NCBI RefSeq assembly: GCF_964204645.1
Contig: NC_134026.1
Coordinates: 30,972,150-31,036,149, forward strand
Origin: Tubulanus polymorphus
Lineage: Eukaryota; Animalia; Nemertea
Length of the DNA: 64,000 bases
Direction of reading: 5' to 3'
Shown here: one piece after another, positions 6,915 to 62,175 of the stretch
Layout: the number at the start of each line of letters is the position of its first letter
How positions within the stretch are numbered: position 1 is the stretch's first letter
Notes under the pieces: generated by a model
Seen by the model: only the letters and a program-made list of their open reading frames with translations
What the model was told of the DNA's origin: nothing
The model's database searches: none
Program-made: the position numbers and the translations under genes

Positions 6915-7770
6915 TAGAGAATTATTGTTCAAGAGCTTCAATTCACTGTTCTAAGTTGTTAACTTTTTCACGAAATGTTTCAATGTTTTCTATCAGCGAT
7001 TCGAGGAATTTAACACGATTTTCTAAATCCATTAATTTCTCGCTCAGTGGTTTATTCGACGTTACAGGAGTCAAAGGCTCCTCGGTTGGTGCTGGAGTAG
7101 AGGGCTCCTCGGTTGGTGCTGGAGTAGCGGGCTCCTCGGTTGGTGCTGGAGTAGCGGGCTCCTCGGTTGGTGCTGGAGTAGCGGGGTCCTCGGTTGGTGC
7201 TGGGGTAGAGGGCTCCTCGGTTGGTGCTGGGGTAGAAGGCTCCTCGGTTGGTGCTGGAGTAGCGGGCTACTCGGTTGGTGCTGGGGCAGAGGGCTCCTCG
7301 GTTGGTGCTGGAGTAGAGGGCTCCTCGGTTGGTGCTGGAGTCGAAGGCTCCGCTGTTGGCGGTGTTCGAGTCGCATATCCTCTGATGCAAGGTTCACTAT
7401 CCCGAAAATGGCTACAGTTCATTTTTTCTGGCCATTGAAATCCGAGCGTGTCACAACCATTTCTAGCAAGTTCACAGAGTGATTTACACGGTGGTTCAGA
7501 AGAACAAGGTGGTGCGTACATAGCGCATAGAAACTCCCTTAAATTCGGACTGCATCTCACCTTAACCAACGGAAATAACTGATGTAACTCCAGACCTGCT
7601 TCTTCTTGGTTTTGATGATGAAAACTATTCGGCATTTTTGTTTTATCGTACGACAATCCTACTTTACATAGTGGTATCTGTATACGCTCACAAGTTTCAC
7701 GTCTGTTGATGTAGACACTTTCATTAACACCAAAATAAAACATTAGCATCAAAATCCAAATCAGAGACAT
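6915..7770 (-). pseudogene. Secreted Frizzled-CRD / mucin-repeat / coiled-coil paralog, truncated or pseudogenised
   Basis: Signal peptide and 10-Cys CRD closely matching 61513-62175; GAG>TAG stop at 7267 inside TEEPSTPAP repeats; a second stop (CGA>TGA, ~6943) in the coiled coil; 4-aa deletion (MNRF) in the CRD. Confidence 0.8.
7075..7360 (-). repeat. 27-bp coding minisatellite (TEEPSTPAP), about 10 copies
   Basis: GGCTCCTCGGTTGGTGCTGGAGTAGAG-type unit repeated. Confidence 0.9.
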
Positions 7771-7975
7771 TTTGCGGATCTGATCCGTTCACTGCAGTAC
7801 AGACTAACAACCAATATATACTGAATATATTTTAGCCTAAAAAGTGGTTTACTAACATTTTTTATGTGTGCTTCATGTATATCTATTTGTAGACTCAGGT
7901 CGTGTACAGCCCCTTATCCCCAGAATTTCGTTTGAACACATGTTATCACAGTTAGACACACAATATCCGTGTATG

Positions 7976-10649: not shown

Positions 10650-10710
10650 ATAAAATAAACACCTGACGATGATCTCTAGGGTGAGATCGAAACGTCGTGT
10701 TTATTTTATA
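10650..10710 (+). ncRNA. Minimal type I hammerhead ribozyme (Penelope-type)
   Basis: TATAAAATAAACAC-CTGACGA-t-GATCTC-tagggt-GAGATC-GAAA-cGTC-GTGTTTATTTTATA: 14-bp stem I, 6-bp stem II, intact core, palindromic minimal stem III. Confidence 0.8.
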
Positions 10711-11218: not shown

Positions 11219-11679
11219 CGTAGATTGATCTTGTATTAATCTCATCGGTGTTCATCTCTTTTGAGGAGATTCAATTATAAAAGATTCTATCTAATCCGTG
11301 GTCAGTGGGGAATGGACTCTTGCCCAAATTACTGCCCAAAGTCAATTGGTCGATATGAAACAACTACAAACACTTGAACAGGATTTTATTATTAAAAACA
11401 TCAGGTTTAAACCAATATCAAGAGTAAAACCTGCTTTGATGAAAACAAACAGAGCCAGACACTTGATAAATCACAGTAATAAAATCAAGACTAATCAAAT
11501 TAATCAACAACAAATGATAAGATAAGATATATTCAACTAACGAAGTATTAGATCATTAAAATAATTTAATGATAATAAATCCACCAGACATTTGACACTC
11601 TTTATAAAAACATCAGACTTAAACAAATACTATTAAACACAAACTAAACTTTAATAACTTTAATCTATTTTCCATTTTA

Positions 11680-11907
11680 CTTTAAGTGTTACATCATACA
11701 AAAAAGTATTGATACTAGACTCCGCCCAAACATCCGACCCTCTTAATGAAAACTACAGATTAAAGATATTTTTTCGATACAAAGATATTTTTTTCTATAG
11801 AAAGATATATTCTCAATACAAAGATATTTTTTTCAATTAACTTTAAGTGTTACACCACACAAATATGTATTGATACTAGACTCCGCCCAAACATCCGACC
11901 CTCTTAA
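11680..11907. repeat. Direct duplication of ~67 bp
   Basis: CTTTAAGTGTTACA...GTATTGATACTAGACTCCGCCCAAACATCCGACCCTCTTAA at ~11680 and ~11841. Confidence 0.8.
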
Positions 11908-14007
11908 CTACAATTACAACTTACAAAATGTTATAGTGAACAAAGATATTTTCAACTTACTTTAATAACTTTAATTAAATGTTTCATTATACAAATTGAA
12001 TCATTTGATTCACAGATACTACTTAGAATATAGCGTAGTACGCTACAATACGAACAATGTCTCCGATTCAGGAAATACCACAAATCTGATGCGAGAAATT
12101 CAAGATCAAGAAATGACCCTCTTGATCTTTATTAACAATGACAGACTATCTGAATCAAATCATCAATCGAGCATTCTATGATATCAATCATTTATTTTTG
12201 AAGTTGATGGATTTTGTTTAATTGTGTGTTGGATTTTATTTGGTTTAGTGTTTGTTTATCATTAATTGAGTCCATAGAATGCTTCTAAGCGATCGACACA
12301 AAGAGATCCGAGTCACTGCTTACCGTACGTACAGTCCTCAGTTGCCAGAGACTGCTCTTCGATTTTCAACAGAAAGCAGTATTTCATGTATCGGAAAAAC
12401 ACTTCTAACTTATAATCAATTCAATAATTCTCTAACAATATAAGATAATCATACAGTGGAATTTATTTTTCAGCATAATGTTTCAGGTAACAACAATTAA
12501 AAAGTATTGTAGCTACAAACACTAATTCCTTATTAACACGACTCATAAAATACCAAAAACACCGAAATACCCGACTTTGAAAACAGTATAAGAGGAAACT
12601 TGATTGTATTGAAGTCTTGATTATAAAGGAAAACTTGATGAAACTTGATTATATTCCATGAAGTATCCAGCATTCTATCATATCTTAAGTAGTTGGTTTT
12701 TGTATTTTTGTGTTTTCAGTGGTTTGTATTTCAATGTGTATTTAAGTTTTAAGTGTTTGATTGTTTATGTGTAGTTGAGCTGATAGAATGCTGAAATAAC
12801 ATCACGGTCCTCGACCGACCGGAGGCTCGTACACTACAGACGACACACATCCTCAGTCAATAATAAACTGCTCCTCTCTATTTCCGGCAGGGTATTTACC
12901 GAATTGGTATTCTATGAATCGTCAAATGTTACATTATCTATTGAAAACAGTTTAATTAAACCAAGTCGTCCACGTAAAAAACAGTGACTCCAAAAATGAA
13001 GAGTGTATGGTATAACACTTAGCTGGAGACAACCGCAAAGAAAACTGCTGTTTCCTGAATTCTGCGTGCCATCCTACTAAAATCCTCCGCACTAAAACCA
13101 GAGACATTCCTAAACACTAAGTTCACTCTGGAAAGCGCAAGGTAAACAATCTATAACTAATTTAATTCATTTTTTTACATTATTATTATTACTACTTAAA
13201 AAACTTAAGTTTTACATTGTTTTTTTTACATGTTTTTCTACATTAATATTATTGAAACTTGAGAAACTAAGTTTTATATATTTGTTTTTCATGTTTTTCT
13301 ACATTAATATTATTACTACTTGAAAAACTAAGTTTGACATTTTTTTTCAATCAAAAATTATTACAAATTTTTTTTTTTTTCGTTAATTTTCCAGCATCCA
13401 TAAAACAATGAATATTCACATTAAGTGAATGGGAGAGGGGGTTTTAAAGGAAACTTGATCTTTAATCGTTTATTAGGCACATCCTATCGTGCTGCCAACA
13501 CCGGGCTTGTTAGTTTAAAAAAAAATAAAAGGGTTTGTTAGTACGCTTTGCGCTTTGTGCCTAGGATGCTTAAATAAACACTTAAACGATCAAGTAAAAT
13601 ATTGATGAAAGTGAATTGAATAGTTTAAGGGGAGATGTTTTATGAATGAAAGGAAAACTTATTTTGATTTCACTAGAAAAAGATACCAGATGTTGTAAAT
13701 AGGACTCATACATAACACACAAATTCACACACAGATTTACACACAGATTCGTACATGACCAACAAATACACATCAGAATCACACCTACCTTACACCACCT
13801 CCATTTGCATCATACTGCATCTGTTTCATCGTGAATTTCGGGGCCCCTTTTTAGAAATGCGCACTACACTAAACAATTGTTCGCTGATCACTGCTGCTCC
13901 TTCGATATATTGTTCATAAAAACTCTGCTGCTCCTTAGATATATTGTTTGTAAACTCGGCTAATCCCGCATATATTGTTTGTTAACTTTGCTGCTCCTTC
14001 GATTGTT

Positions 14008-14833
14008 GCTGGTTAGTAGACTCTCGGCTGGTGGTAGACTCTCGGCTGGTGGTAGACTCTCGGCTGGTGGTAGACTCTCGGCTGGTGGTAGACTCTCGGC
14101 TGGTAGTAGACTCTCGGCTGGTAGTAGACTCTCGGCTGGTGGTAGACTCTCGGCTGGTAGTAGACTCTCGGCTGGTGGTAGACTCTCGGCTGGTAGTAGA
14201 CTCTCGACTGGTAGTAGACTCTCGGCTGGTGGTAGACTCTCGGCTGGTGGTAGACTCTGGACTGGTGGTAGACTCTCGGCTGGTGGTAGACTCTCGGCTG
14301 GTGGTAGACTCTCGGCTGGTGGTAGACTCTCGGCTGGTAGTAGACTCTCGGCTGGTAGTAGACTCTCGGCTGGTGGTAGACTCTCGGCTGGTAGTAGACT
14401 CTCGGCTGGTGGTAGACTCTCGGCTGGTAGTAGACTCTCGACTGGTGGTAGACTCTCGGCTGGTGGTAGACTCTCGGCTGGTGGTAGACTCTCGGCTGGT
14501 GGTAGACTCTCGGCTGGTGGTAGACTCTCGGCTGGTGGTAGACTCTCGGCTGGTGGTAGACTCTCGGCTGGTGGTAGACTCTCGGCTGGTGGTAGACTCT
14601 CGGCTGGTGGTAGACTCTCGGTTGGTAGTAGACTCTCGACTGGTAGTAGACTCTCGGCTGGTGGTAGACTCTCGGCTGGTGGTAGACTCTCGGCTGGTGG
14701 TAGACTCTCGGCTGGTGGTAGACTCTCGGCTGGTGGTAGACTCTCGGTTGGTAGTAGACTCTCGACTGGTAGTAGACTCTCGGCTGGTGGTAGACTCTCG
14801 GTTGGTGGTAGACTCTCGGCTGGTGGTAGACTC
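14008..14833. repeat. 18-bp minisatellite, about 46 copies
   Basis: GCTGGTGGTAGACTCTCG unit; stop-free in all frames, which explains the overlapping ORFs. Confidence 0.95.
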
Positions 14834-15041
14834 TTGGCTATAGAAAAATGACGATGCAAAATATATCAATAAAATTCGATGAGATATTACTGCTTGGATA
14901 AAACATTTAATCTAATAATGAAATCGAAATTTCTTACCATAGAATTAACTAGAAACCATGACCTTTCTTCAGTCTTATTGTGGTTACACTATTGTCTCTG
15001 CTGCTCCTAAACTGAATTCTGCCATTACTGAACGTCACTGC

Positions 15042-15315
15042 AACTCTGCTAACTATCTGGAACTCTGCTAACTATCTGGAACTCTGCTAACTATCTGGAA
15101 CTCTGCTAACTATCTGGAACTCTGCTAACTATCTGGAACTCTGCTAACTATTTGGAACTCTGCTAACTATCTGGAACTCTGCTAACTATCTGGAACTCTG
15201 CTAACTATCTGGAACTCTGCTAACTATCTGGAACTCTGCTAACTATCTGGAACTCTGCTAACTATCTGGAACTCTGCTAACTATCTGGAACTCTGCTAAC
15301 TATCTGGAACTCTGC
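15042..15315. repeat. 19-bp minisatellite, about 14 copies
   Basis: AACTCTGCTAACTATCTGG unit. Confidence 0.95.
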
Positions 15316-15814
15316 TGGGATTTTCTGATGTCATCATAGCTGCTAAATTCGTCATCAGTTATTGTCTGGTCATCTCATCTCATGGCTTCATTTTGAAACA
15401 TTCAGCTGGAAAGAAATGATATTTTTGAGGTGTACAATCCGTTCGAACATCTTATTATTTTACATGGAGAAGTTAAAATCAGTCCCTGTCGTTTACAATT
15501 GCAATAATTGTATTATTTGATCAGTGATTGTCAATAAACCCCCGATTGATTAGTATTAGTAGCGTTAGTTAATCACTATTTAAGACAGTGATCATTAACG
15601 TAGATTTCTCTGATACAAGATCAGTTAACGTTGATTTTATACAAAGTCCGCAGTGTCTTTAAAAAGACATTGAGATCCTACTGAACCTCATTGTCCGAGG
15701 AGTTTTGATTTTCTTTTGACATTTTTCGGGGCTGTCTATTCTAAGACGATTTTTCTTTGATTAGGCGGGAAAAGGACTAATTGGAGTTTGTTAAGTTGGG
15801 AGCTAATAGAGAGA

Positions 15815-16218
15815 CTGGTAACGCCACCTATTGCTCAGGCCTTTTAGTCTCTGCGCTCTGATAGGAATAGACAGTACTAAAAGGTGGATGTGCGAGTTCT
15901 AGGCGACTGGTAACGCCACCTATCGCTCGTCACCATCCTACCTTTAGCACTGAGAGTTGGGAGCTATAGGAAGGCTGGTAGCGCCACCTATTATTGCTCA
16001 GGCACCATAGTCTCTGCGCACTTACCCGATGCTCTGATCAAAGTTTAATGTATTTTTAGTTTTAGGGGAGTTTTTGAGATCTAAGAGCTATAGGAAGGCT
16101 GGTAGCGCCACCTATTGCTCGGACACCATCATCTCCGCACACTTACCCGAAGCTCTGATTGTAAGGTTTCAGTGATCTTGGGAGAGTTTGAGAGGATGGT
16201 AGCACCACCTATTGGTCA
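15815..16218 (-). promoter_or_regulatory. Cluster of five co-oriented CTCF-like motifs (repeated at ~20586-20989 and ~25405-25808)
   Basis: TGGTA(A/G)CGCCACCTAT(T/C)GCTC x5; reverse complement GCAATAGGTGGCGCTA resembles the CTCF core CCACTAGRTGGCGC. Confidence 0.55.
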
Positions 16219-17112
16219 GGAATGGTCTACTCTTTGTCTCTGATAAGGCTGAATGCGTGGCTACCACAAGTGGCCAAGTGTCAAGTCAAACACAACTCAT
16301 TGTGATAAGTAATTACAGTCTCATGGATGAAACCAACTTCTTATTAATGCATTTCAAGAGGCACAAAATGTGACAGAACACTTTTAAACCAGTGTGCACT
16401 AAATATCAGTAAATCATATGAAAATATCAACTTGTCATCAAAAAGTGAAGCTTTGATTGAAAGAGATCTTGAAATGACTCTTTTTGAAATTGAGATTCCA
16501 CAAACAAAGATTGAGCCTTCAGTAAGAAGACATTTCAAATATTGTCAAAACTCTTGATATTGAGAATCAAGTAACAAAGATTCACTGACAACACTTGATA
16601 TATCAATATCTACTAATTGATGATATATCAAAATACTGATAGAAGTGACACAGTAATTAGCAACTAACATTCATAATTTCACATCAAAGGTTTCTCAAAT
16701 TCTTTTTCATGGATGATATTATCAGCGACTGGCTCTGAAATTCTCGATATCCTACAGTTTTTTTCAGTCAATAAGAAAAACACAAAAATTCTAATGAGTT
16801 TTTTCCGTCAAATAGAAAAAACAGAACTGAAGTTTTTCCGTCAAAATGAAAAACTCAATGTTAAGTGATACAGTAATTTTGTATTTCAAGTTTCAGATGA
16901 AATAGCGACAACCATTATTCATGCAGGTTTCATCTCTCAAATATTATTAGTCTGGTTTTCTGAATTCAAACTTAAGGAGTAGCGCAGCAGCAGCAGCAGC
17001 AGCACCAAACAAACATAGAAATCACCAAATAATTTTGAGAAATTCTTTCACATTTTAACTGATGACATTCAGAATACAATACATGTGATTAAAACAAATA
17101 TAATGATTATGC

Positions 17113-17718
17113 AAATGAGATTGGAGAGAGTGCCACAAATGAATCGGGACTTTCATCTAATACGAGCACGCTGAAAACAGAAACATGTGTTAAATTGAAT
17201 GAGGCAAACCATAATGTATAAGACACGAATGAGTTCGCGGTGGTCCTTTTTGACCGGTTAAACTGACTTAACAAAGAAAGAATGGTGAAATGTTGAATTG
17301 TAAATTTGTACTCGGAGAAGTCCCAAAACGACACCTCATCACTCATTTATTTTATCTCTAACCTAATCTAAACCGGTGTAAATATTGAACTCAACAGAAC
17401 TTCACATAAAATGAGATTGAATCATTAAGATGAAATTTGAAATATACATCAAAATTACGATATTTTGATAAAGTGCCATTGAGTGTATAAAGGACTTCAG
17501 TCTAATACGAGTACAAACAAATTAACGGTAAAAAATATGTGAAAAATATGAATGAAGGTAAATTGATTGAAATCGAACCATTTATGCAGAGCATTACATA
17601 AAATAACTACTACATAAATAAGTTCACACTAGTGGCCTTGAATTAGACCAGATTGAAACTGATAAATCTTTAGAATTGTACTCGGACAAGTCCTGTATTA
17701 ATTTCAAAAAAGGCACTT
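17113..17718 (-). ncRNA. Two diverged copies of a putative ~240-nt structured RNA element (also in units 2 and 3)
   Basis: Shared nested stems GTGCC, GGACTT/AAGTCC, CGAGYAC/GTACTCG and an inner GGYC/GACC hairpin; mismatches resolve as G-U pairs on the minus strand. Confidence 0.45.
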
Positions 17719-20160
17719 CATTTTTTTCTAGTTCCTTATCATTCTATTGACACTGGTATCACTGATATTTATTATCAGCAAAAATATATTAAACTAAATT
17801 TGAAGTGAAGTTTCAAAGCGTCAAAGCTTTTACTCACTACACTTTATTTCCAGGGATTTCTACTTTTGATTGTTTGGTGCAAATTTAATCAATTAGAGTA
17901 TTTTAAATAACCAGACATTTTTTCATTTTGACTGAAACCTGCTCCAAGAAGGTTGCGCAGATTTGTATATAATTGATAATAAACAGATTAAATTTCTACT
18001 TAATTTCAATAATTCTATAAGATATTCATATCTATATAAATATCAATATTCAATATCGAAATTAATTTTTTCGACTTTACTTCAAATTGAATTCACTTAC
18101 GGAATTTCATTTTTCAAAACAATGAATTCGAAGGTAAGAACTTCCCTTGATTTTCTGAGAAACAATAGTTTTGTATCGAAATGATATTTCATGAACAAAG
18201 TGAGAAGGAAATTCAATCGATTCCTTTCAAAATAAAGATATAACTAACAAAGATGGAATGACGATTCTTTTACGATCAATTTTCACAAGATTCAGACGAT
18301 TGACTAAGATTAAAATGAGATACTTCAATTGATTCAATTCAACTTTTTAACTTCACTTCTAAAAGCATTTGATCATCATCGATATTGAAATATTGATGTA
18401 TAAAAATATTGGATTTATTGTGAATCCTTTGCAAAATAGAGATTTCAGTAACTAAGATGGAATGATGATTTTTCTTCAGAAGATCAAGATTTCACTATAA
18501 ATTCTGTAAGTTGACCTTAATTTGCCTAACACTTACTGGGAATCCAGAACTTTCAAACAAGTAAAACTAAATATCAACTCCACATCAAAATATGAGGCTT
18601 CATTAAAAGAGATCTCGATGATTCTTTTTTAAATTGAGATTGAGAAATCGGTAAGAAAATATTTGGAATATTGCAAATACTTAAGCGATTACGATTTCAA
18701 GTAAAAAAATACTGAACACCCCGAGATTTTACACATTTCTACAGAGACAATTAACAAATTAATTAAAAGAATTTATCTTTAAGAATTTATTTCAAATTGA
18801 GGAATAGGAACTTTGACGATAAAATGATTAAAACAGAGCTTGCGGAGATGATCTTATTACACGTAAAGGCACAAGACAAGCGTGCTCACCACTGAACCGA
18901 TAGAACTTAAGTCTAATTAGTCAGTGATTAAACAGCGCTTGATTTCGTTATACAAAATACTATGAGAAACTAGTAACTATTTTAAACAGTTTCTAGTTTC
19001 TATAATACACCTTTCACAGAGCTCACAGAGACAATTTGAACTTTGTTAGTAGGATTTAGGGGGGCTAGCGATCGAACTAATGGTTATACACCTTCATATA
19101 ATCTTTTCAGTCAAACAAACTGTAACAACTAATATTCTATATTATATTCTCTCCTATATTGAGTCACATTATTTCTCTATCACAGAACTTTATAAAGATA
19201 AACGTTTAATACTTTTTGGGCTAGTGAGACTATGTTTAGTTAGTACATCTAGCCAAGTGAACTAGCGTCCACGCGACTAGTGACTAAACAGCTTATAAAA
19301 TACTATAACGAGACAACTTATTTTCAGACGCTGCAAGCGTGCTCAGCATTAGACCTAGAGAACAAGTCAACTAGGCTAAAATATACACCTTTTAACAGTT
19401 ACACATTTCAGAACAGATACTGAATTCATAACAGCTTACAATGATTTAAGGCAAGCTCATTAAACCACTCAACATTTACAAGATTATTACTGATCAATAA
19501 CTATATCAAATTACTGCTTGGCAGATGTAATAAGAATTTACTAACACTTTTACAAAGCAAGTTCTTTCTATCTTAACACACGAGTAAAGCTAATATACGT
19601 TATATTAATTCCAGCACAGAGCTAACAGAGACAAGATCTTTTTTTGAACGATTTTGTTAGCAAAATTTTGGCCCAATAGAGGTTTTGTTATGAGGCTGAT
19701 AAAGAGAAAAGTCGTTTTACGATCTTTTCCTTTAAGTTTTCTTATGTGAAGTAATGATTGTGAACTCGTGCGGTGCAGACACAGAACATCGTTTAACGAT
19801 TTTGTGTCATTTGGATGATTTTTTTTCTTTTCACTTTCAGTTAGATATTAAGCGTTAGAAATCTAAGTTTTTTGAGAGGAGCTTTTAAAAAAGCTTTTCG
19901 ACACCTCATTCTTAGTGTATTTTTACACATTCTACTTTTGGGTTTTGTAAACCCTGTAGCGCTCCACTCTATCCTTTCTCTCCCGCAATAGAAAAATAAA
20001 TCAAACTTAGCTTTTTTATATTGCGACAATCATCAGTGTGGATCAACTGCGAGGTAGTGTGGATCAACTGGTGGTTCCACGATGCATCTGTTGGATTCTT
20101 CTGGTAGTATTTATGAACATGACTGTGCTAATTCCGCAGCATTACTTATCGTCTAGATTT

Positions 20161-23100
20161 ATTTTGAAACATTCAGCTGGAAAGAAATGATATTTTTGAG
20201 GTGTACAATCCGTTCGAACATCTTATTATTTTACATGGAGAAGTTAAAATCCGTCCTTGTCGTTTACAATTGCAATAATTGTATTATTTGATCAGTGATT
20301 GTCAATAAACCCCCGATTGATTAGTATTAGTAGCGTTAGTTAATCACTATTTAACACAGTGATCATTAACGTAGATTTCTCTGATACAAGATCAGTTAAC
20401 GTTGATTTTATACAAAGTCCGCAGTGTCTTTAAAAAGACATTGAGATCCTACTGAACCTCATTGTCCGAGGAGTTTTGATTTTCTTTTGACATTTTTCGG
20501 GGCTGTCTATTCTAAGACGATTTTTCTTTGATTAGGCGGGAAAAGGACTAATTGGAGTTTGTTAAGTTGGGAGCTAATAGAGAGACTGGTAACGCCACCT
20601 ATTGCTCAGGCCTTTTAGTCTCTGCGCTCTGATAGGAATAGACAGTACTAAAAGGTGGATGTGCGAGTTCTAGGCGACTGGTAACGCCACCTATCGCTCG
20701 TCACCATCCTACCTTTAGCACTGAGAGTTGGGAGCTATAGGAAGGCTGGTAGCGCCACCTATAATTGCTCAGGCACCATAGTCTCTGCGCACTTACCTGA
20801 TGCTCTGATCAAAGTTTAATGTATTTTTAGTTTTAGGGGAGTTTTTGAAATCTAAGAGCTATAGGAAGGCTGGTAGCGCCACCTATTGCTCGGACACCAT
20901 CATCTCCGCACACTTACCCAAAGCTCTGATTGTAAGGTTTCAGTGATTTTGGGAGAGTTTGAGAGGATGGTAGCGCCACCTATTGCTCAGGAATGGTCTA
21001 CTCTTCGTCCCTGATAAGGCTGAATGCGTGGCTACCACAAGTGGCCAAGTGTCAAGTCAAACACAACTCATTGTGATAAGTAATTACAGTCTCATGGATG
21101 AAACCAACTTCTTATTAATGCATTTCAAGAGGCACAAAATGTGACAGAACACTTTTAAACCAGTGTGCACTAAATATCAGTAAATCATATGAAAATATCA
21201 ACTTGTCATCAAAAAGTGAAGCTTTGATTGAAAGAGATCTTGAAATGACTCTTTTTGAAATTGAGATTCCACAAACAAAGATTGAGCCTTCAGTAAGAAG
21301 ACATTTCAAATATCGTCAAAACTCTTGATATTGAGAATCTAGTGACAAAGATTCACTGACTGCACGTGATATATCAATATCTACTAATTGACGATATATC
21401 AAAATACTGATAGAAGTGACACAGTAATTAAACTAACATTCATAATTTCACATCAAAAGTTTCTCAAATTCTTTTTCATGGATGATATTATCAGAGGACT
21501 GGCTCTGAAATTCTCGATATCCTACAGTGTTTTTCAGTCAAAAAGAAAAACACAAAAATTCTAATGAGTTTTTTCCGTCAAATTGAAAAAAACAGAATTG
21601 AAGTTTTTCCGTCAAAATGAAAAACTCAATGTTAAGTGATACAGTAATTTTGTATTTCAAGTTTCAGATGAAATAGCGACAACCATCATTCATGCAGGTT
21701 TCATCTCTCAAATATTATTAGTCTGGTTTTCTGAATTCAAACTTAAGGAGTAGCGCAGCAGCAGCAGCAGCAGCAGCAGCAAACAAACATAGAAATCACC
21801 AAATAATTTTGAGAAACTCTTTCACATTTTAACTGATGACATTCAGAATACAATACATGTGATTAAAACAAATATAATGATTATGCAAATGAGAGTGGAG
21901 AGAGTGCCACAAATGAATCGGGACTTTCATCTAATACGAGCACGCTGAAAACAGAAACATGTATTAAATTGAATGAGGCAAACCATTATGTATAAGACAT
22001 GAATGAGTTCGCGGTGGTCCTTTTTGACCGGTTAAACTGACTTAACAAATAAAGAATGGTGAAATGTTGAATTGTAAATTTGTACTCGGAGAAGTCCCAA
22101 AACGACACCTCACCACTCATTTATTTTATCTCTAACCTAATGCTATTAATAGAACTCCACACAAAAAAACATAAAACAGCCTTAAATAAATGATATTGAA
22201 TATGAATTTTACCTCAAAATACCTCAAAATTACTATATTTTGAAAAAGTGCCATTGAATGTTGAAGGACTTCAGTCTAATACGAGTACAAACAAATTAAC
22301 GGTAAAAATATATTCAAAATTTGAATGAAGGTAAATTGATTGAAATCGAACCATTTATGCAGAGCATTACATAAAATAACTACTACATAAATAAGTTCAC
22401 ACTAGTGGCCTTGAATTAGACAAGATTGAAACTGATAAATCTTTAGAATTGTACTCGGACAAGTCCTGTATTTATTTCAAAAAAGGCACTTCATTTTTTT
22501 CTAGTTCCTTATCATTCTATTGACACTGGTATCACTGATATTTATTATCAGCAAAAATATATTAAACTAAATTTGAAGTGAAGTTTCAAAGCGTCAAAGC
22601 TTTTACTCACTACACTTTATTTCAAGGGATTTCTACTTTTGATTGTTTGGTGCAAATTTAATCAATTAGAGTATTTTAAATAACCAGACATTTTTTCATT
22701 TTGACTGAAACCTGCTCCAAGAAGGTTGCGCAGATTTGTATTAAATTGATAATAAACTGATCAAATTTCTACTTAATGTCAATAATTCTATAAGATATTC
22801 ATATCTATATAAATATCAATATTCAATATCGATATTAATTTTTTTGACTTTACTTCAAATTGAATTCATTTACGGAATTTCATTTTTCAAAACAATGAAT
22901 TCGAAGGTAAGAACTTCCCTTGATTTTCTGAGAAACAATAGTTTTGTATCGAAATGATATTTCATGAACAAAGTGAGAAGGAAATTCAATCAATTCCTTT
23001 CAAAATAAAGATATAACTAACAAAGATGGAATGACGATTCTTTTACGATCAATTTTCACAAGATTCAGACGATTGACTAAGATTATATTTACATTCGAAA

Positions 23101-24980
23101 TTACATGAACAAAATGAGAAACTTCAATTGATTCAATTCAACTTTTTAACTTCACTTCTAAAAGCATTTGATCATCATCGATATTGAAATATTGATGTAT
23201 AAAAATATTGGATTCATTGTGAATCTTTTGCAAAATAGAGATTTCAGTAACTAAGATGGAATGGTGAGTCTTCTTTAGAAGATCAAGATTTCACTATAAA
23301 TTCTCTAAGTTGATCTTAATTTACCTAACACTTACTGGGGAATCCAGAACTTTCAAACAAGTAAAACTAAATATCAACTCCACATCAAAATATGAGGCTT
23401 CATTAAAAGAGATCTCGATGATTCTTTTTTAAATTGAGATTGAGAAATCGGTAAGAAAATATTTGGAATATTGCAAATACTTAAGCGATTACGATTTCAA
23501 GTAAAAAAATACTGAACACCCCGAGATTTTACACATTTCTACAGAGACAATTAACAAATTAATTAAAAGAATTTATTATTAAGAATTTATTTCAAACTGA
23601 GGAATAGGAACTTTGACGATAAAATGATTAAAACAGAGCTCGCGGAGATGATCTTATTACATGTAATGGCACAAGACAAGCGTGCTCACCACTGAACCGA
23701 TAGAACTTAAGTCTAATTAGTCAGTGATTAAACAGCGCTTGATTTCGTTATACAAAATACTATGAGAAACTAGTAACTATTTTAAACAGTTTCTAGTTTC
23801 TATAATACACCTTTAACAGAGCTCACAGAGACAATTTGAACTTTGTTAGTAGGATTTAGGGGGGCTAGCGATCGAACTAATGGTTATACACCTTCATATA
23901 ATCTTTTCAGTCAAACAAACTGTAACAACTAATATTCTATATTATATTCTCTCCTATATTGAGTCACATTATTTCTCTATCACAGAACTTTATAAAGATG
24001 ATGTTTAATACTTTTGGGCTAGTGAGACTATGTTTAGTTAGTACATCTAGCCAAGTGAACTAGCGTCCACGCGACTAGTGACTAAACAGCTTATAAAATA
24101 CTATAACGAGACAACTTATTTTCAGACGCTGCAAGCGTGCTCAGCATTAGACCTAGAGAACAAGTCAACTAGGCTAAAATATACACCTTTTAACAGTTAC
24201 ACATTTCAGAACAGATACTGAATTCAAAACAACTTACAATGATTTAAGGCAAGCTCATTAAACCACTCAACATTTACAAGATTATTACTGATCAATAACT
24301 ATATCAAATTACTGCTTGGCAGATGTAATAAGAATTTACTAACACTTTTACAAAGCAAGTTCTTTCTATCTTAACACATGAGTAAAGCTAATATACGTTA
24401 TATTAATTCCAGCACAGAGCTAACAGAGACAAGATCTTTTTTTGAACGATTTTGTTAGCAAAATTTTGGCCCAATAGAGGTTTTGTTATGAGGCGATAAA
24501 GAGAAAAGTCGTTTTACGATCTTTTCCTTTAAGTTTTCTTATGTGAAGTAATGATTGTGAACTCGTGCGGTGCAGACACAGAACATCGTTTAACGATTTT
24601 GTGTCATTTGGATGATTTTTTTTCTTTTCACTTTCAGTTAGATATTAAGCGTTAGAAATCTAAGTTTTTTGAGAGGAGCTTTTAAAAAAGCTTTTCGACA
24701 CCTCATTCTTAGTGTATTTTTACACATTCTACTTTTGGGTTTTGTAAACCCTGTAGCGCTCCACTCTATCCTTTCTCTCCCGCAATAGAAAAATAAATCA
24801 AACTTAGCTTTTTTATATTGCGACAATCATCAGTGTGGATCAACTGCGAGGTAGTGTGGATCAACTGGTGGTTCCACGATGCATCTGTTGGATTCTTCTG
24901 GTAGTATTTATGAACATGACTGTGCTAATTCTCCGTAGAATCTTCCGTTGGTCTCGCAGCATTAGTTATCGTCTAGATTT
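20161..24980. repeat. ~4.8 kb tandem macro-repeat, unit 2
   Basis: Highly similar to units 1 and 3, with scattered substitutions and indels. Confidence 0.95.
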
Positions 24981-27900
24981 ATTTTGAAACATTCAGCTGG
25001 AAAGAAATGATATTTTTGAGGTGTACAATCCGTTCGAACATCTTATAATTTTACATGGAGAAGTTAAAATCAGTCTCTGTCATTTACAATTGCAATAATT
25101 GTATTATTTGATCAGTGATTGTCAATAAACCCCCGATTGATTAGTATTAGTAGCGTTAGTTAATCACTATTTAACACAGTGATCATTAACGTAGATTTCT
25201 CTGATACAAGATCAGTTAACGTTGATTTTATACAAAGTCCGCAGTGTCTTTAAAAAGACATTGAGATCCTACTGAACCTCATTGTCCGAGGAGTTTTGAT
25301 TTTCTTTTGACATTTTTCGGGGCTGTCTATTCTAAGACGATTTTCTTTGATTAGGCGGGAAAAGGACTAATTGGAGTTTGTTAAATTGGGAGCTAATAGA
25401 GAGACTGGTAACGCCACCTATTGCTCAGGCCTTTTAGTCTCTGCGCTCTGATAGGAATAGACAGTACTAAAAGGTGGATGTGCGAGTTCTAGGCGACTGG
25501 TAACGCCACCTATCGCTCGTCACCATCCTACCTTTAGCACTGAGAGTTGGGAGCTATAGGAAGGCTGGTAGCGCCACCTATTATTGCTCAGGCACCATAG
25601 TCTCTGCGCACTTACCTGATGCTCTGATCAAAGTTTAATGTATTTTTAGTTTTAGGGGAGTTTTTGAAATCTAAGAGCTATAGGAAGGCTGGTAGCGCCA
25701 CCTATTGCTCGGACACCATCATCTCCGCACACTTACCCAAAGCTCTGATTGTAAGGTTTCAGTGATTTTGGGAGAGTTTGAGAGGATGGTAGCACCACCT
25801 ATTGCTGAGGAATGGTCTACTCTTCGTCTCTGATAAGGCTGAATGCGTGGCTACCACAAGTGGCCAAGTGTCAAGTCAAACACAACTCATTGTGATAAGT
25901 AATTACAGTCTCATGGATGAAACCAACTTCTTATTAATGCATTTCAAGAGGCACAAAATGTGACAGAACACTTTTAAACCAGTGTGCACTAAATATCAGT
26001 AAATCATATGAAAATATCAACTTGTCATCAAAAAGTGAAGCTTTGATTGAAAGAGATCTTGAAATGACTCTTTTTGAAATTGAGATTCCACAAACAAAGA
26101 TTGAGCCTTCAGTAAGACGACATTTCAAATATCGTCAAAACTCTTGATATTGAGAATCTAGTGACAAAGATTCACTGACTGCACGTGATATATCAATATC
26201 TACTAATTGACGATATATCAAAATACTGATAGAAGTGACACAGTAATTAAACTAACATTCATAATTTCACATCAAAAGTTTCTCAAATTCTTTTTCATGG
26301 ATGATATTATCAGAGGACTGGCTCTGAAATTCTCGATATCCTACAGTGTTTTTCAGTCAAAAAGAAAAACACAAAAATTCTAATGAGTTTTTTCCGTCAA
26401 ATAGAAAAAACAGAATTGAAGTTTTTCCGTCAAAATGAAAAACTCAATGTTAAGTGATACAGTAATTTTGTATTTCAAGTTTCAGATGAAATAGCGACAA
26501 CCATCATTCATGCAGGTTTCATCTCTCAAATATTATTAGTCTGGTTTTCTGAATTCAAACTTAAGGAGTAGCGCAGGAGTAGCGCAGCAGCAGCGGCAGC
26601 AGCACCAAACAAACATAGAAATCACCAAATAATTTTGAGAAACTCTTTCACATTTTAACTGATGACATTCAGAATACAATACATGTGATTAAAACAAATA
26701 TAATGATTATGCAAATGAGATTGGAGAGAGTGCCACAAATGAATCGGGACTTTCATCTAATACGAGCACGCTGAAAACAGAAACATGTGTTAAATTGAAT
26801 GAGGCAAACCATTATGTATAAGACATGAATGAGTTCGCGGTGGTCCTTTTTGACCGGTTAAACTGACTTAACAAATAAAGAATGGTGAAATGTTGAATTG
26901 TAAATTTGTACTCGGAGAAGTCCCAAAACGACACCTCACCACTCATTTATTGTATCTCTAACCTAATGCTATTAATAGAACTGTACACAAAAAAAACATA
27001 AAACAGCCTTAAATAAATGATATTGAATATGAATTTTACCTCAAAATACCTCAAATTACTATATTTTGAAAAAGTGCCATTAAATGTTGAAGGACTTCAG
27101 TCTAATACGAGTACAAACAAATTAACGGTAAAAATATATTCAAAATTTGAATGAAGGTAAATTGATTGAAATCGAACCATTTATGCAGAGCATTACATAA
27201 AATAACTACTACATAAATAAGTTCACACTAGTGGCCTTGAATTAGACCAGATTGAAACTGATAAATCTTTAGAATTGTACTCGGACAAGTCCTGTATTTA
27301 TTTCAAAAAAGGCACTTCATTTTTTTCTAGTTCCTTATCATTCTATTGACACTGGTATCACTGATATTTATTATCAGCAAAAATATATTAAACTGAATTT
27401 GAAGTGAAGTTTCAAAGCGTCAAAGCTTTTACTCACTACACTTTATTTCAAGGGATTTCTACTTTTGATTGTTTGGTGCAAATTTAATCAATTAGAGTAT
27501 TTTAGATAACCAGACATTTTTTCATTTTGACTGAAACCTGCTCCAAGAAGGTTGCGCAGATTTGTATTAAATTGATAATAAACTGATCAAATTTCTACTT
27601 AATGTCAATAATTCTATAAGATATTCATATCTATATAAATATCAATATTCAATATCGAAATTAATTTTTTTGACTTTACTTCAAATTGAATTCATTTACG
27701 GAATTTCATTTTTCAAAACAATGAATTCGAAGGTAAGAACTTCCCTTGATTTTCTGAGAAACAATAGTTTTGTATCGAAATGATATTTCATGAACAAAGT
27801 GAGAAGGAAATTCAATCAATTCCTTTCAAAATAAAGATATAACTAACAAAGATGGAATGACGATTCTTTTACGATCAATTTTCACAAGATTCAGACGATT

Positions 27901-29661
27901 GACTAAGATTATATTTACATTCGAAATTACATGAACAAAATGAGATACTTCAATTGATTCAATTCAACTTTTTAACTTCACTTCTAAAAGCATTTGATCA
28001 TCATCGATATTGAAATATTGATGTATAAAAATATTGGATTCATTGTGAATCTTTTGCAAAATAGAGATTTCAGTAACTAAGATGGAATGGTGAGTCTTCT
28101 TTAGAAGATCAAGATTTCACTATAAATTCTCTAAGTTGATCTTAATTTACCTAACACTTACTGGGGAATCCAGAACTTTCAAACAAGTAAAACTAAATAT
28201 CAACTCCACATCAAAATATGAGGCTTCATTAAAAGAGATCTCGATGATTCTTTTTTAAATTGAGATTGAGAAATCGGTAAGAAAATATTTGGAATATTGC
28301 AAATACTTAAGCGATTACGATTTCAAGTAAAAAAATACTTAACACCCCGAGATTTTACACATTTCTACAGAGACAATTAACAAATTAATTAAAAGAATTT
28401 ATCATTAAGAATTTATTTCAAATTGAGGAATAGGAACTTTGACGATAAAATGATTAAAACAGAGCTCGCGGAGATGATCTTATTACACGTACTGGCACAA
28501 GACAAGCGTGCTCACCACTGAACCGATAGAACTTAAGTCTAATTAGTCAGTGATTAAACAGCGCTTGATTTCGTTATACAAAATACTATGAGAAACTAGT
28601 AACTATTTTAAACAGTTTCTAGTTTCTATAATACACCTTTCACAGAGCTCACAGAGACAATTTGAACTTTGTTAGTAGGATTTAGGGGGGCTAGCGATCG
28701 AACTAATGGTTATACACCTTCATATAATCTTTTCAGTCAAACAAACTGTAACAACTAATATTCTATATTATATTCTCTCCTATATTGAGTCACATTATTT
28801 CTCTATCACAGAACTTTATAAAGATAAACGTTTAATACTTTTTGGGCTAGTGAGACTATGTTTAGTTAGTACATCTAGCCAAGTGAACTAGCGTCCACGC
28901 GACTAGTGACTAAACAGCTTATAAAATACTATAACGAGACAACTTATTTTCAGACGCTGCAAGCGTGCTCAGCATTAGACCTAGAGAACAAGTCAACTAG
29001 GCTAAAATATACACCTTTTAACAGTTACACATTTCAGAACAGATACTGAATTCAAAACAACTTACAATGATTTAAGGCAAGCTCATTAAACCACTCAACA
29101 TTTACAAGAATATTACTGATCAATAACTATATTAAATTACTGCTTGGCAGATGTAATAAGAATTTACTAACACTTTTACAAAGCAAGTTCTTTCTATCTT
29201 AACACACGAATAAAGCTAATATACGTTATATTAATTCCAGCACAGAGCTAACAGAGACAAGATCTTTTTTTGAACGATTTTGTTAGCAAAATTTTGGCCC
29301 AATAGAGGTTTTGTTATGAGGCTGATAAAGAGAAAAGTCGTTTTACGATCTTTTCCTTTAAGTTTTCTTATGTGAAGTAATGATTGTGAACTCGTGCGGT
29401 GCAGACACAGAACATCGTTTAACGATTTTGTGTCATTTGGATGATTTTTTTTCTTTTCACTTTCAGTTAGATATTAAGCGTTAGAAATCTAAGTTTTTTG
29501 AGAGGAGCTTTTAAAAAAGCTTTTCGACACCTCATTCTTAGTGTATTTTTACACATTCTATTTTTGGGTTTTGTAAACCCTGTAGCGCTCCACTCTCTCC
29601 TTTCTCTCCCGCAATAGAAAAATAAATCAAACTTAGCTTTTTTATATTGCGACAATCATCA
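24981..29661. repeat. ~4.8 kb tandem macro-repeat, unit 3
   Basis: Highly similar to units 1 and 2; similarity ends at GACAATCATCA ~29661. Confidence 0.95.
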
Positions 29662-29679
29662 CTGGGAGGTAGTGCTCTC

Positions 29680-29962
29680 AGTAGTTCTAGTAGTAGTAGT
29701 TCATTTTCTAGGAGTTCATCTTTTAGTTCTAATAGTTCATTGGACCCTAGTAGTGCCGTAGTTACTAGTAGTAGTTCATTTTCTAGGAGTTCATCTTTTA
29801 GTTCTAATAGTTCATTGGACCCTAGTAGTGACGTAGTTACTAGTAGTAGTTCATCTTCTAGGAGTTCATCTTCTAGTTAGAATAGTTCATTGGACCCTAG
29901 TAGTGCTGTGGTTTCTAGTAGTAGTTCATCTTCTAGTAGTTCTAGTAATTAGTTCATCTTCT
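29680..29962. repeat. ~75-bp minisatellite built of TAG/TTC sub-repeats, about 3.5 copies
   Basis: AGTAGTTCATTTTCTAGGAGTTCATC...TTGGACCCTAGTAGTG recurs at ~75 bp spacing. Confidence 0.85.
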
Positions 29963-31291
29963 CGATGTTCTAGGTCGTGGCTGGTCGACAACTTGGTTCA
30001 TCTTGCATTTGATGCATTCTTCTGACGGTCTCCATAAAAAAACACTTTCTGCGGCTGGAAATAAAGAAAATAGTAGATAATTTCTTGGAATCAGAATGTT
30101 AACGTTTACAATATGAAGCAAAGAAAAAAATATAGTTCAATCTCTGCGAGTAGAAACATGGATTATTACAACAAAATGAAAATAAATTGGGAATACAAAA
30201 AATTACGATTTATGAAAATGATTCTATGAAATTGTTATCAAAGTGTTCACAACAACTTTATTAGATGCAATGTTACTGGATATAAGACAATTACAATCAA
30301 TCCATAATTTAGAATTCAAACTTTCTCACCATGAAAACGGATGTTCTTGTTCTTGTTTTATTTAATTCAGCCCAGCACATCAGGACAGCATACAGGCAGC
30401 ACGGTGGCTCAGACATGAGTGCGGCGATTTAGACAGGGCGCCAACTGCTCTCAAACCTATTGACGCGTTACCGGATTAGGTTGGGAGACTATAGGCAACG
30501 GGCTGGCATTTTTACAGTGACCAATCAGAGAGAGCATCGTCCTTGAATAGATTCACCGCGCGAGGTCGAGGTTGACTCGTTCCGCTCTGGCCGACTCGAA
30601 ACCCTTCACCGCCGCCCGTTCCGCTAATAAACACCGGACTCGAACAGACCCTTCCACATTCATAGTGTATTTCATTATTACGATAGAAAGAATTAATCAA
30701 ATCTTAGAGATCTTAAAATCTAATTCTTAAAGTGGCCCGCCCGTCTCTCACTCGTGACAAAAAAGCATTTTTTCAACTGGATGTGGTTTAGACATTTTAA
30801 AACCCGATTTTCAATTAACTCAGATTTAAGACTGCACTTGGAATCAAGCCTCCAATCGGCTCCGAGAGGCAATATTATATCTCAGACAGTAGCGAGAGAG
30901 TCTGACTGATGTCATTTCGAATTCAAATTCTGGTGTCATCTCTGAATCCTCAAAGTCCCTGACTCGTTGATTCGTGATCAAACTCAATTAGATTCACTCT
31001 CTTATAGTCCCGAGAGGTCTCGGAGCCCGCGCCTCCTCAAAATTGAGAAAATTTTGAAAATTTGCCTGCTCAAATGGCATATTGATACCGGACCCATACG
31101 AAACTAGAAAAATATGGAAATTGTATCGACGGCGTAATCGATTCATTTTAAAAATAATATAGATCAATCTTTCGGACAAATCAGCTGATGTAAAATAAGT
31201 CTCAGTGGGGCTCGAATCGCCAAAAGTTTGTACAGGGCTGTCGAGACTGTGATTAAGAAATAACCGATTCAATATTCAATTCAATTCAATA

Positions 31292-59399: not shown

Positions 59400-60489
59400 T
59401 ATTTACTTGTTGTGGTTCAATTATATAGTTGTAGTTCACGTATTTGTAAGATCAAAAGTATTTTTAAAAAGCCAGTTTGCACTGAAATGTTTATTATAAA
59501 GGCAGCTTTGAAGATGGATACTGATTAAATCAATACGTGGTGAACTATAGGTATCAGTATCCTTTTCAGAATGTCTCGATTGATAGAACTTCGAAGTTTT
59601 AATAATTAATTTGTCACATTTTTTATGAAGATTTATTTTCGTAGATCTACTTAGAAGAATTATACATTTTACAAATAACCCTTGATAATTATAAGCTAAT
59701 GCGTAAATGTATCCGTCAAAAAAGGCTAGATATTCTTAATATGCAATGCTCAGGTAGCCTATTATCAGGGTTAACCCGTATCAGATCGGATGGTATTTAT
59801 CAGGGAGTTTTACAAAATGTGGTCAAAACTACCATTTTTGTAAATTTGTTTTGACATAGAACGAATACATGTAAAATAGCACATCATCAATATGATGTGC
59901 TATTTTACATGTGCATACTCAGGTGTGTACATTCTGTTGTTGGTATATCGATAATATGTGTTCCGTCCGATAGGTGGCGGCCATGAAGCTTCTGGCTTGT
60001 ACATGTAGTGTCCACGATAATAAATAAACATCTCTGTGATTGTTATTACTAGTAAACATGCCATTTTTTCGTCGATTTTATTTTTCATGGATCTGAGGAA
60101 ATCAACAGTCGCCAGCCAGTTTATCATCGAGAATTATTTCCCCTGACAAGAGACATTATGATTTTTAATTGAAAATGCAATACAAACACTACAGACATAG
60201 ACATTCATCGGTACACTTTCAAAAACTGATCGTCCACACTTCACTTGGGTTCAGAACATTCGATCAGGATGAGGACTTGCTGTGGCTGATTGCACAGGGA
60301 ACGGTTGGCCCGGGTCTGAAAACTACACTGAAGTCCTCGCGACATTGTAACACGTTTAGTCAAATGAACGACCTCATTATTATTGCAAATGCAACTATCG
60401 TCATTATTGTAATTGTAAATAACTAATAGATACAGAATTCAGCGCTGCCTGTATTATATATACTGCATTGAGTGGGATAGATCAGCAAA

Positions 60490-61059
60490 ATGTCTACGAT
60501 TTGGATTTTGATGTTTATGGCGCTTCATTTTAATGTCAACGATAGTGCCTACATCAAAAGAACTGACACCTGTCAGGATATAACGATTCCGATGTGTAAA
60601 ATAGGATTGTCATACAATCAAACAAAAATGCTGAATGTCTTCAATCGGAACCAAGAAGAAGCTCTTTGGGACTTGTTTTTTTGGCCGCGGATAAATTGCA
60701 GCGATTCCCTGAATGAATTTCTATGTGCACTATACGCACCGCCGTGTTCCTCGGAACCGCCGTGTAAATCGCTATGCGAAGAAGTTACAAAAGCGTGTGA
60801 AGCTGCGATGAATAGCCTGGGATTTCTTTGGCCACACAAACTGAGGTGCGAAAATTTCAAACGGGAAACATCTTGTATCGGAGCCCGAGGTATTGAAAAA
60901 TCTCAAAATCACGGACAGCTGAGTGTGATGACATTGATGGATCTGGAAAATCGTGTTGATTTCCTCGAATCACGAATAGAAAACAGTGAAACATTTCGCG
61001 ATAAAGTAAAAAATTTAGAGCAGCGAATTGAAGCTCTTGAACGCATTTTATTGAAGTAA
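60490..61059 (+). CDS. Intronless secreted Frizzled-CRD protein with C-terminal coiled coil (divergent paralog)
   Basis: Signal peptide, 10 Cys in Fz-CRD spacing, no TM segments, heptad tail [12 protein letters not shown]...[12 protein letters not shown]. Confidence 0.88.
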   Translation: MSTIWILMFMALHFNVNDSAYIKRTDTCQDITIPMCKIGLSYNQTKMLNVFNRNQEEALWDLFFWPRINCSDSLNEFLCALYAPPCSSEPPCKSLCEEVTKACEAAMNSLGFLWPHKLRCENFKRETSCIGARGIEKSQNHGQLSVMTLMDLENRVDFLESRIENSETFRDKVKNLEQRIEALERILLK

Positions 61060-61512
61060 CTATTTTAAATAATTCTGTAAAGAAACGATCAAATTTCAAC
61101 AACAACAAAGATATAATCTCTGCGGTTAAATGATCGTTCAACTCATAAATCTTTAATTTCTCTTTTTTGAGTCATTGAATAAAAGATCTTTCTTCAAGAA
61201 CTTCCACAAAAATCTGGTGATCTAGTTTTTTTTCGATTTTTCCTTTCCAACAACTTACACGAACCGGAGTTCGGAGTGAATCTGCTGTAATTTGTGCGGA
61301 TAGGGGTGAATTCTGTTCCCACAGTGTCAACAACAGTTTCGTCATTAATGTTGTCATATTTCCAGGGTAGCGGGTGATCTAATTGCAGAATTTACTAATA
61401 TTGCCTCCTCTAATGACGTATCAAATTGTATGGGTGACCTAAACCTTTATTGGCATTTGGTTAGACTGGTTGCTGGTAGTTGAAGCTGCGCTAAACCGAA
61501 TAGATCCACAAA

Positions 61513-62175
61513 ATGTCTCCAATTTGGATTTTCACGTTTTTTATGTTTTATTTTGGCGTCGGTGAAAGTTTTTTCAGGACAAGTGAAAACTGTGAGAATA
61601 TACAGATGCCACTGTGTAAAGTAGGATTGTCGTACAATCAAACAAGAATGCCGAATATGTTTCATCATCAAAACCAAGAAGAAGCAGGTCTGGAGTTACA
61701 TCAGTTTTTTCCGTTGGTTAAGGTGAGATGCAGTCCGAATTTAAAGGAGTTTCTATGCGCTATGTACGCACCACCTTGTTCTTCTGAACCACCGTGTAAA
61801 TCACTCTGTGAACTTGCAAGAAATGGTTGTGAAACCCTCATGAACAGATTCGGATTTCAATGGCCAGAAAAAATGAACTGTAACCATTTTCGAGATAATG
61901 AACCTTGTATCAGTGGAACTGCGACTCCAGCACCGCCAACAACACAGGAGCCGTCGACTCCACCACCAACCGAGGAGCCCTCTACTCCAGCACCAACCGA
62001 GGAGCCTTTGACTCCTGTGACGTCGAATAAACCGTTGAGCGTGAAATTAATGGATTTAGAAAATCGCGTTGAATTCCTCGAATCGCTGATAGAAAACAGT
62101 GAAACATTTCGCGATAAAGTGAAAAATTTAGAACAGCGAATTGAAGCTCTTGAACGTATTTTATTGAAGAATTGA
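61513..62175 (+). CDS. Intronless secreted Frizzled-CRD protein with Pro/Thr linker and C-terminal coiled coil
   Basis: Signal peptide; [35 protein letters not shown]...[14 protein letters not shown] (Fz1/2/7-like CRD); about 3 TEEPSTPAP repeats; coiled coil; no TM or NTR domain. Confidence 0.92.

Follow-up and report, generated by a model that had tools for sequence, protein, structure and literature searches.

The window (the whole 64-kb stretch of DNA analysed) carries on its minus strand two adjacent RNA elements, A and B, each approximately 240 bases long and each present in three copies. The copies of A lie at 17113-17348, 21887-22122 and 26713-26948, and those of B at 17470-17720, 22245-22493 and 27071-27319. 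The preliminary description of this DNA had quoted segments of six such copies, and these segments are found at the places and on the strand that it gave. The elements belong to a larger structure, referred to here as the host, the core of which (11670-30620, minus strand) is a predicted spliced, non-coding Pol II unit with ragged ends that occurs at seven loci. The genome is that of an animal, with rhodopsin-type receptors and U1, U2 and 18S genes. Elsewhere the window holds three related secreted proteins (7267-7788, 60481-61059 and 61504-62175) with a cysteine-rich frizzled-like domain (named by eye), a Pro/Thr repeat and a coiled-coil tail. A Penelope-type minimal hammerhead remnant is located at 10663-10693 on the plus strand, and similar remnants were identified near several of the loci and elsewhere. 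A tRNA scan of the window was blank.

On the minus strand, A and B have a common predicted fold. P1 (6 bp) leads to P2 (7 bp) and then to P3 (2 bp, a one-sided UAUUA bulge and 7 bp), and these nested helices close a variable U-rich domain that contains two small inner helices. A differs in having a further outer stem beyond this core. The span between the ends of P1 is 207-254 nt, and the core consists of 16 bp formed by strands of 16 nt and 23 nt, with the 5-nt bulge placed on the 3' strand and accompanied by an internal loop. This 23-nt 3' strand (17147-17169 in the first copy of A and 17492-17514 in the first copy of B, both on the minus strand) is the most conserved stretch of the elements. 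In A, an acceptor-like pyrimidine tract followed by CAG ends two bases upstream of it in 17/17 copies; in B, the tract before it is rich in U and lacks an AG. The inner GGUC/GRCC hairpin and the second inner helix, starting from GAAC, had been reported earlier as a shared module and are indeed both present, but mismatches are tolerated in them (as in the GGUC hairpin of the second copy of B). A long helix enclosing B matched a pattern in 2/12 units and was not recovered by RNAalifold.

Folding of single sequences favours the minus strand. For the window copy of A, the minus strand folds at -48.4 kcal/mol (z -2.2) and the plus strand has a z-score of +0.1, while for the window copy of B the corresponding values are -60.6 kcal/mol (z -4.8) and -2.9. 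When 33 of the 34 genomic copies were folded, the mean z-scores were -2.4 for A and -4.2 for B on the minus strand, compared with -0.4 and -2.8 on the plus strand, and the minus strand was the more stable in 31/33 copies (20 shuffles each). The bulge is predicted to be unpaired with a probability of 0.93-1.0 in each of three copies tested.

The whole genome (268 Mb in 77 contigs) was searched both by pattern and by DNA comparison. The 5' core pattern has exactly 34 matches, which always occur as B-then-A pairs: 17 pairs at seven loci on six contigs, 14 of them in addition to the three in the window. Neither search found a solo A or B (one extra pattern match corresponds to the control rate). 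A covariance model of A and B was run over 724 kb only, such that remote paralogs elsewhere in the genome may be missed; it recovered the known copies and two hits with E 0.66. Neither the window nor 14 related loci produced an Rfam hit that reached the gathering score, and around A and B in a near and a far pair the scans gave only chance-level hits (E 2-9), in keeping with the earlier statement that no family could be assigned. In pattern searches of other collections, the 3' strand had two viral hits and the two-arm pattern one metagenome hit, all without the rest of the element, while the A-length two-arm pattern had no hits in viral contigs and the B-length pattern had none in prokaryote genomes. 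No homolog of A or B was thus found in viral, prokaryote and metagenome collections, which hold few animals, and literature searches (by word matching only) found no published work on this RNA.

Alignment indicates that A and B are tandem paralogs and not unrelated sequences. They had first been described as sharing little sequence except for paired segments; in fact they align throughout, with 63-68% identity over their entire length. Identical columns make up 45/48 of the paired positions and 64/108 of the unpaired positions (Fisher p 8e-6), a comparison that is partly circular because the stems were chosen from these very sequences. The three paired columns that differ between A and B remain paired. 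The three G·U differences (pairs 5/287, 9/283 and 42/246) and the single switch from G-C to A-U (pair 28/267) reported earlier are real.

Among the 33 aligned copies, P1-P3 are paired in 98.5-100% of cells (slid controls, for the whole structure, gave 31-53%) and 14 of the 22 pairs are invariant. Helix 5 of the structure, counted on 14 copies, is 95% paired. Seven pairs have a G·U variant on the minus strand and one has an A·C variant, a bias for which a rough binomial estimate (8/9 events) gives p 0.02; by parsimony, 18 changes fall in 44 paired columns and 180 in 144 unpaired columns. True covariation is weak, with a double-sided (compensatory) change at one pair only and in a single event across the 33 copies, and with pair-type counts that fail to exceed those of shuffles (250/500 and 471/500). 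The loop sequence UAUUAGA, at first called invariant, is unchanged in 32/33 aligned copies. The exception is B_C8b, a decayed copy that differs by one change; the 34th copy (C1a_2, a B) has a deletion through the core that cuts inside the loop.

Comparison of the near and far locus groups (12/17 units aligned) sets A apart from the rest of the unit. Its identity between the groups is 94.6%, the highest of 37 windows of the unit (240 nt for A; median 78.3%), and that of B is 82.8%. This high identity extends to the unpaired parts of A. A_C8a, a far copy, groups with the near set (95% identity to the near copies and 88% to its neighbour), a pattern suggesting that gene conversion can account for part of the identity. 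As 14/22 pairs never vary, sequence-specific recognition fits these data better than recognition of shape alone, and, because the bulge and its adjoining pairs are invariant while the inner linkers are variable, the bulge looks like a protein-binding site. Selection on an RNA fold with a protein-binding or catalytic loop had been suggested for these elements. The strand bias, the small number of stem changes and the position of A as the best-conserved window argue for the first part of this suggestion, a minus-strand fold with a probably protein-binding bulge, but not for catalysis (see below). We consider A and B to be a well-supported prediction of a real, conserved and strand-specific fold outside every catalogued family, with comparative evidence from one genome.

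Each of the seven loci holds a complete ~19-kb host unit with a promoter, short stop-rich exons, one to four copies of a 4.7-kb exon-intron repeat and a tail, and the head and the tail are each found at the same seven loci as A and B. The head of the window copy (30055-30640, minus strand) has a CCAAT box at 30519-30526, a first exon end ATG/GTGAG at 30323-30332 and an acceptor at 30055-30065. The first exon ends with ATG/GTGAG at 7/7 loci, while the head acceptor is lost at one locus. The three tandem repeat units of the window (15387-20038, 20158-24832 and 24978-29664, all on the minus strand) are 96% alike and contain one A and one B each. Every unit starts with the donor-like sequence AAAAG(C/A)TAAGTTTG and ends at a conserved acceptor; in the first unit the predicted intron runs from the donor-like motif at 20001-20017 to the acceptor at 15406-15418.

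This donor is odd in that it consists of G, then C, T or A, then TAAGT. The motif at 20001-20017, 24798-24814 and 29627-29643 (minus strand) has the variable C/A/T in place of the G of GT, and the same replacement is seen throughout the superfamily described below. The motif may be an atypical donor or a non-splicing U1 site. Shifted U1 pairing is known (PMC9311317). The U1, U2 and 18S genes of the genome were located, and no variant U1 with a 5' end matching the odd donor was found among 21 U1 loci, of which 17 have the standard 5' end and four lack it. The U1 genes (L113-L135; contigs C3 and C10) comprise several sequence variants, mostly on one contig, and have in common a ACACCGGT element near -60, with a TATA-like box ~30 nt upstream.

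The predicted exons of the units measure 120-222 nt and occur in all three phases, and 10/12 of them have stops in every frame (the last exon of each locus being excluded). ATG-led ORFs in the host are 9-33 aa long and variable, no long ORF is conserved across the loci, and host ORFs are without a Pfam match. The exons 3' of the units are full of minisatellites that differ between loci. Since the exons are stop-rich, are of all phases and keep no long ORF, the host is likely non-coding and A and B are likely intronic, their location within an intron being predicted from conserved splice-like motifs. Further donors and acceptors are present inside the unit, including one within A, so that part of A may be exonic. 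The splice signals and the promoter lie on the strand favoured by the G·U bias. One RNA run is uninformative, as it gave no signal on the unit or on a control region containing a TRIM-like gene, and four others covered predicted introns and flanks as DNA would.

Other parts of the unit are also conserved. An island at 15482-15680 (minus strand; 94% conserved, 18 genomic matches) contains a short G·U-rich hairpin (15570-15594), a 7-mer complementary to the bulge strand (15553-15559) and three stacked CUAAY motifs, which we take to be branch-point or Quaking-like. C/D-like words are also present in this island, and its best rRNA match is 11 nt, compared with 9-10 nt in five shuffles. The region 15821-16210 (minus strand) holds five motif repeats, which we presume to be CTCF-like, with two conserved GGTAAGT donors among them; the five motifs are kept in 11-12/12 units. 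A histone stem-loop-like palindrome at 19880-19898 (minus strand) has an Rfam E-value of 0.058, below the gathering score.

Small nucleolar RNA host genes, such as the SNORD115/116-type arrays, have short, fast-changing non-coding exons and conserved intronic RNAs that are amplified together with an exon-intron unit. A and B likewise belong to an exon-intron unit that is amplified, in a host that is likely non-coding; however, they have neither a C/D box pair nor a guide-length match (10-21 nt) above shuffles. Box C near the 5' end together with box D near the 3' end was found in 0/33 copies, and the best perfect matches to the genome's own rDNA were 9-10 nt, within the shuffled range, as were those to U1 and U2. 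Derivation from U1 or U2 is also rejected, as 148-188 of 300 shuffled sequences did equally well in comparison with U2 (five copies tested). The sequence ACCGGT upstream of A and B resembles the U1-gene element, but its spacing varies by ~10 nt and a start directed by it would fall inside the stem, which argues against an snRNA-type promoter. Transcription by Pol III, which in Y RNAs goes with a 3' poly-U tail and no internal terminator, does not fit, given an internal run of at least 4 T in 33/33 copies (in 30, within the first 15 nt) and the lack of an A or B box. A MITE or other TIR transposon is excluded because the host has no inverted ends and no fixed ends (21 pairwise comparisons) and all 34 copies are inside it; the decayed MITE considered in the preliminary description would leave dispersed solo copies, TIRs or TSDs, none of which were found.

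A likeness to the Ro60-binding stem of Y RNAs had also been proposed. As in Y RNAs and stem-bulge RNAs, the paired ends of A and B make bulged stems, and the domain thereby closed off is variable and rich in pyrimidines. Y RNAs, as characterized in PMC4726728, are Pol III transcripts of 100 +/- 20 nt in which a bulged C faces a bulge of 3 nt and the upper stem contains GUG-CAC, whereas A and B have 207-254 nt between the P1 ends and a 5-nt bulge on the 3' strand. The G that creates GUCCGAG is present in only 10/33 copies and UUGAC in 0/33, and the likeness is given up on the grounds of size, bulge geometry and internal T-runs.

Two systems with structured intronic RNAs offer parallels. The stable intronic sequence RNAs of the EBV IR1 (W-repeat) are, from the account in PMC7487152, structured intronic RNAs bound by host proteins and encoded in a tandem exon-intron unit of 5-8 copies. 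They differ from A and B in being viral, in having coding exons and in forming one very long hairpin, and no sequence likeness was detected (Rfam was blank). The CTEs of MPMV and of NXF1 intron 10 resemble A and B in having an intronic stem, an invariant protein-binding loop with conserved surroundings, a nearby splice-site-like sequence and, in the viral form, a duplicated loop, according to the description in PMC4338338. The CTE core is, by the same description, ~53 nt in length with a two-sided internal loop and belongs to a coding gene, while A and B are ~240 nt with a one-sided bulge, the comparison being one of geometry.

The host tail contains two hairpins on the minus strand. Hairpin 1 (12669-12792) has a long A-rich loop, and hairpin 2 (12170-12283) is its paralog with a C-G to G-C swap. 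These hairpins have ~30 bp of stem, made up of a near-invariant part of 12 bp, an internal loop of 2x2 and upper stems that covary, and their compensatory changes comprise three distinct upper stems in addition to the swap. Their geometry is close to that of a pri-miRNA with a 50-250-nt A-rich loop. The 16-mer pattern of the 3' arm has 122 matches in the genome (control, 0) and none in viral contigs. Shared kilobases were found at 17/20 further hairpin sites sampled and at 4/4 loci found via the tail, and the odd donor-like motif (which at these loci may also have T), the tail modules and ragged ends are common to the sampled loci. On this comparison, the tail hairpin appears to be the mark of a superfamily dispersed over about a hundred loci.

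A small hydrophobic ORF is present in 17/24 superfamily loci and encodes 105-147 aa in 16 of these 17. Among the 17 copies (for example L052:1624-2010, plus strand), in-frame indels occur in the first ~100 aa and the tails are frameshifted. No homolog of this ORF was found. The combination of a small membrane protein and a hairpin RNA recalls poison-antidote gene families. Neither A nor B was found in the 24 related loci, and, since these loci have spread without them, A and B would be cargo carried by a single subfamily, and spread does not require them.

The ends of the host are ragged and repeat-rich with nested shared flanks and have no TIR, TSD or fixed terminus (no inverted ends were found, and 21 pairwise comparisons showed no fixed ends). 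Because promoter, introns and flanks travel together, copying likely takes place at the DNA level. Helitrons have a fixed 5' TC and a 3' hairpin with CTRR, while the ends of the host differ between locus pairs; one related pair starts at TC, and old insertions may blur the ends. On the 3' side, 15/31 host and related loci (e.g. L044, L072, L076, L082, L084 and L087) end 1-4 kb past the hairpin, either at a foldback element of one of two kinds or at a 76-bp satellite, a count made without a fair background control. The Dox family of the Drosophila simulans clade is similar in that multi-exon genes were copied to dispersed sites beside repeats without transposon ends, as outlined in bioRxiv 10.1101/2021.08.05.454923. 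The Dox genes of that outline are protein-coding and flanked by one satellite, whereas the repeats in the host flanks are of several types, and no drive is shown. In its spread beside repeats, the host is closer to the Dox family than to the giant transposons reviewed in PMC6431247.

Our preferred explanation, which holds about half of our confidence, is that A and B form a predicted protein-docking module on the intron RNA of a likely non-coding host. Both elements lie on one strand between a conserved donor-like motif and a conserved acceptor, and the unit exons have no shared ORF. In the sequence comparison, a variable U-rich domain is enclosed by their three nested helices, which leave a near-invariant bulge of 5 nt exposed. 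Pol II would transcribe the host, and the intron RNA, whether retained or excised, would keep A and B folded. A protein could then read the bulge and the invariant neighbouring pairs, such that the intron RNA would be stabilised or localised, as occurs with stable intronic RNAs and CTE-type elements. The duplication that gave A and B, the 1-4 units per locus and the seven loci would each supply more binding sites, and duplication of the fold at these three levels points to selection on dose.

The same fold could instead be a cis-acting splicing switch of the host, pairing the start of a cryptic exon with the upstream intron to hide or expose the acceptor in A, with B as a relic or a helper. 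The acceptor-like tract that ends two bases before the 3' core strand in all 17 A copies is consistent with such a switch, as are the donor-like GGTGAG just 5' of P1 in 15/17 A copies and the conserved donors ~0.8-1.3 kb downstream of A. The bulge strand is also complementary over 7 nt to CUAAUAC, which is kept in 12/12 units among the stacked branch-like motifs, but in an AT-rich unit of 4.7 kb, a match of 7 nt is close to what chance would give (an estimated ~0.5 expected). As B keeps the common core without AG (9/9 B copies shown) and an ORF-less host offers little for regulated splicing to control, we think a switch improbable. No greater probability is assigned to the absence of any selection on RNA structure, with A and B representing an old foldback duplication kept alike by gene conversion among self-copying segments. 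Thin covariation, signs of conversion or mosaic copies, the broken copies C1a_2 and B_C8b and the ragged, repeat-rich host ends are what a neutral relic might leave. It would not readily produce ~35% divergence between A and B with 45/48 paired columns identical and the other three still paired, nor the bias of G·U over A·C, nor the conservation of a bulge that is unpaired.

Processing into small RNAs is more doubtful again. A and B would then be non-canonical precursors, with the 22-23-nt 3' core strand excised to serve as a guide, and the long-loop tail hairpins may be precursors as well; the facts that this 23-nt strand is the best-conserved stretch and that the host also carries hairpins with ~30-bp stems and real compensatory changes speak for it. 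Drosha and Dicer, however, require a duplex of ~22 bp with its arms in register within a stem of 33-35 bp. The A/B core has 16 bp over arms of 16 and 23 nt, broken and put out of register by the 5-nt bulge and the internal loop, unlike a conventional pre-miRNA, and the 3' strand is not the same in A and B close to its 5' end. We regard a self-cleaving ribozyme as very unlikely, and the catalytic loop once suggested for the elements has no support. The genome holds Penelope-type hammerhead remnants, and the arrangement of two conserved short segments about a variable insert is reminiscent of the minimal ribozymes of TS-like (twister-sister-like) type in PMC11620745, but the TS-like cores presented there need opposed 5- and 6-nt loops and a CA cleavage site, whereas the A/B loop is a one-sided UAUUA. 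Moreover, no hammerhead, twister, twister-sister, TS-like, pistol, hatchet or HDV-like family was detected at E <=10 in the near and far pair, and a hammerhead core is present in 0/33 copies. The least probable reading assigns the fold a role in single-stranded DNA while the host is being copied via a rolling-circle or comparable process. A G·T wobble would fit one DNA strand equally well and the host is dispersed with tandem internal units, yet A and B are situated mid-unit, away from the ends, the related superfamily spreads without them (24 loci), and no fixed Helitron-type ends were found.

A broader proposal, which we offer as speculative, is that A and B found a new class of intron-encoded RNA and that their host belongs to a self-spreading superfamily of about a hundred genes working mainly via RNA. 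Such genes would combine hairpins that have a long loop and an invariant core of 12 bp, donor-like U1 sites whose first base is disabled and subfamily cargo (A and B in this subfamily, a small membrane protein in the larger one), would have no transposase of their own and might be selfish or germline-regulatory. Few new families of structured RNA come from animals, and the introns of invertebrates have barely been surveyed; for the docking module that we favour, the 34 copies of A and B are natural variants for testing. The dispersed gene superfamily predicted here, with roughly a hundred loci and a near-invariant hairpin, is previously undescribed.
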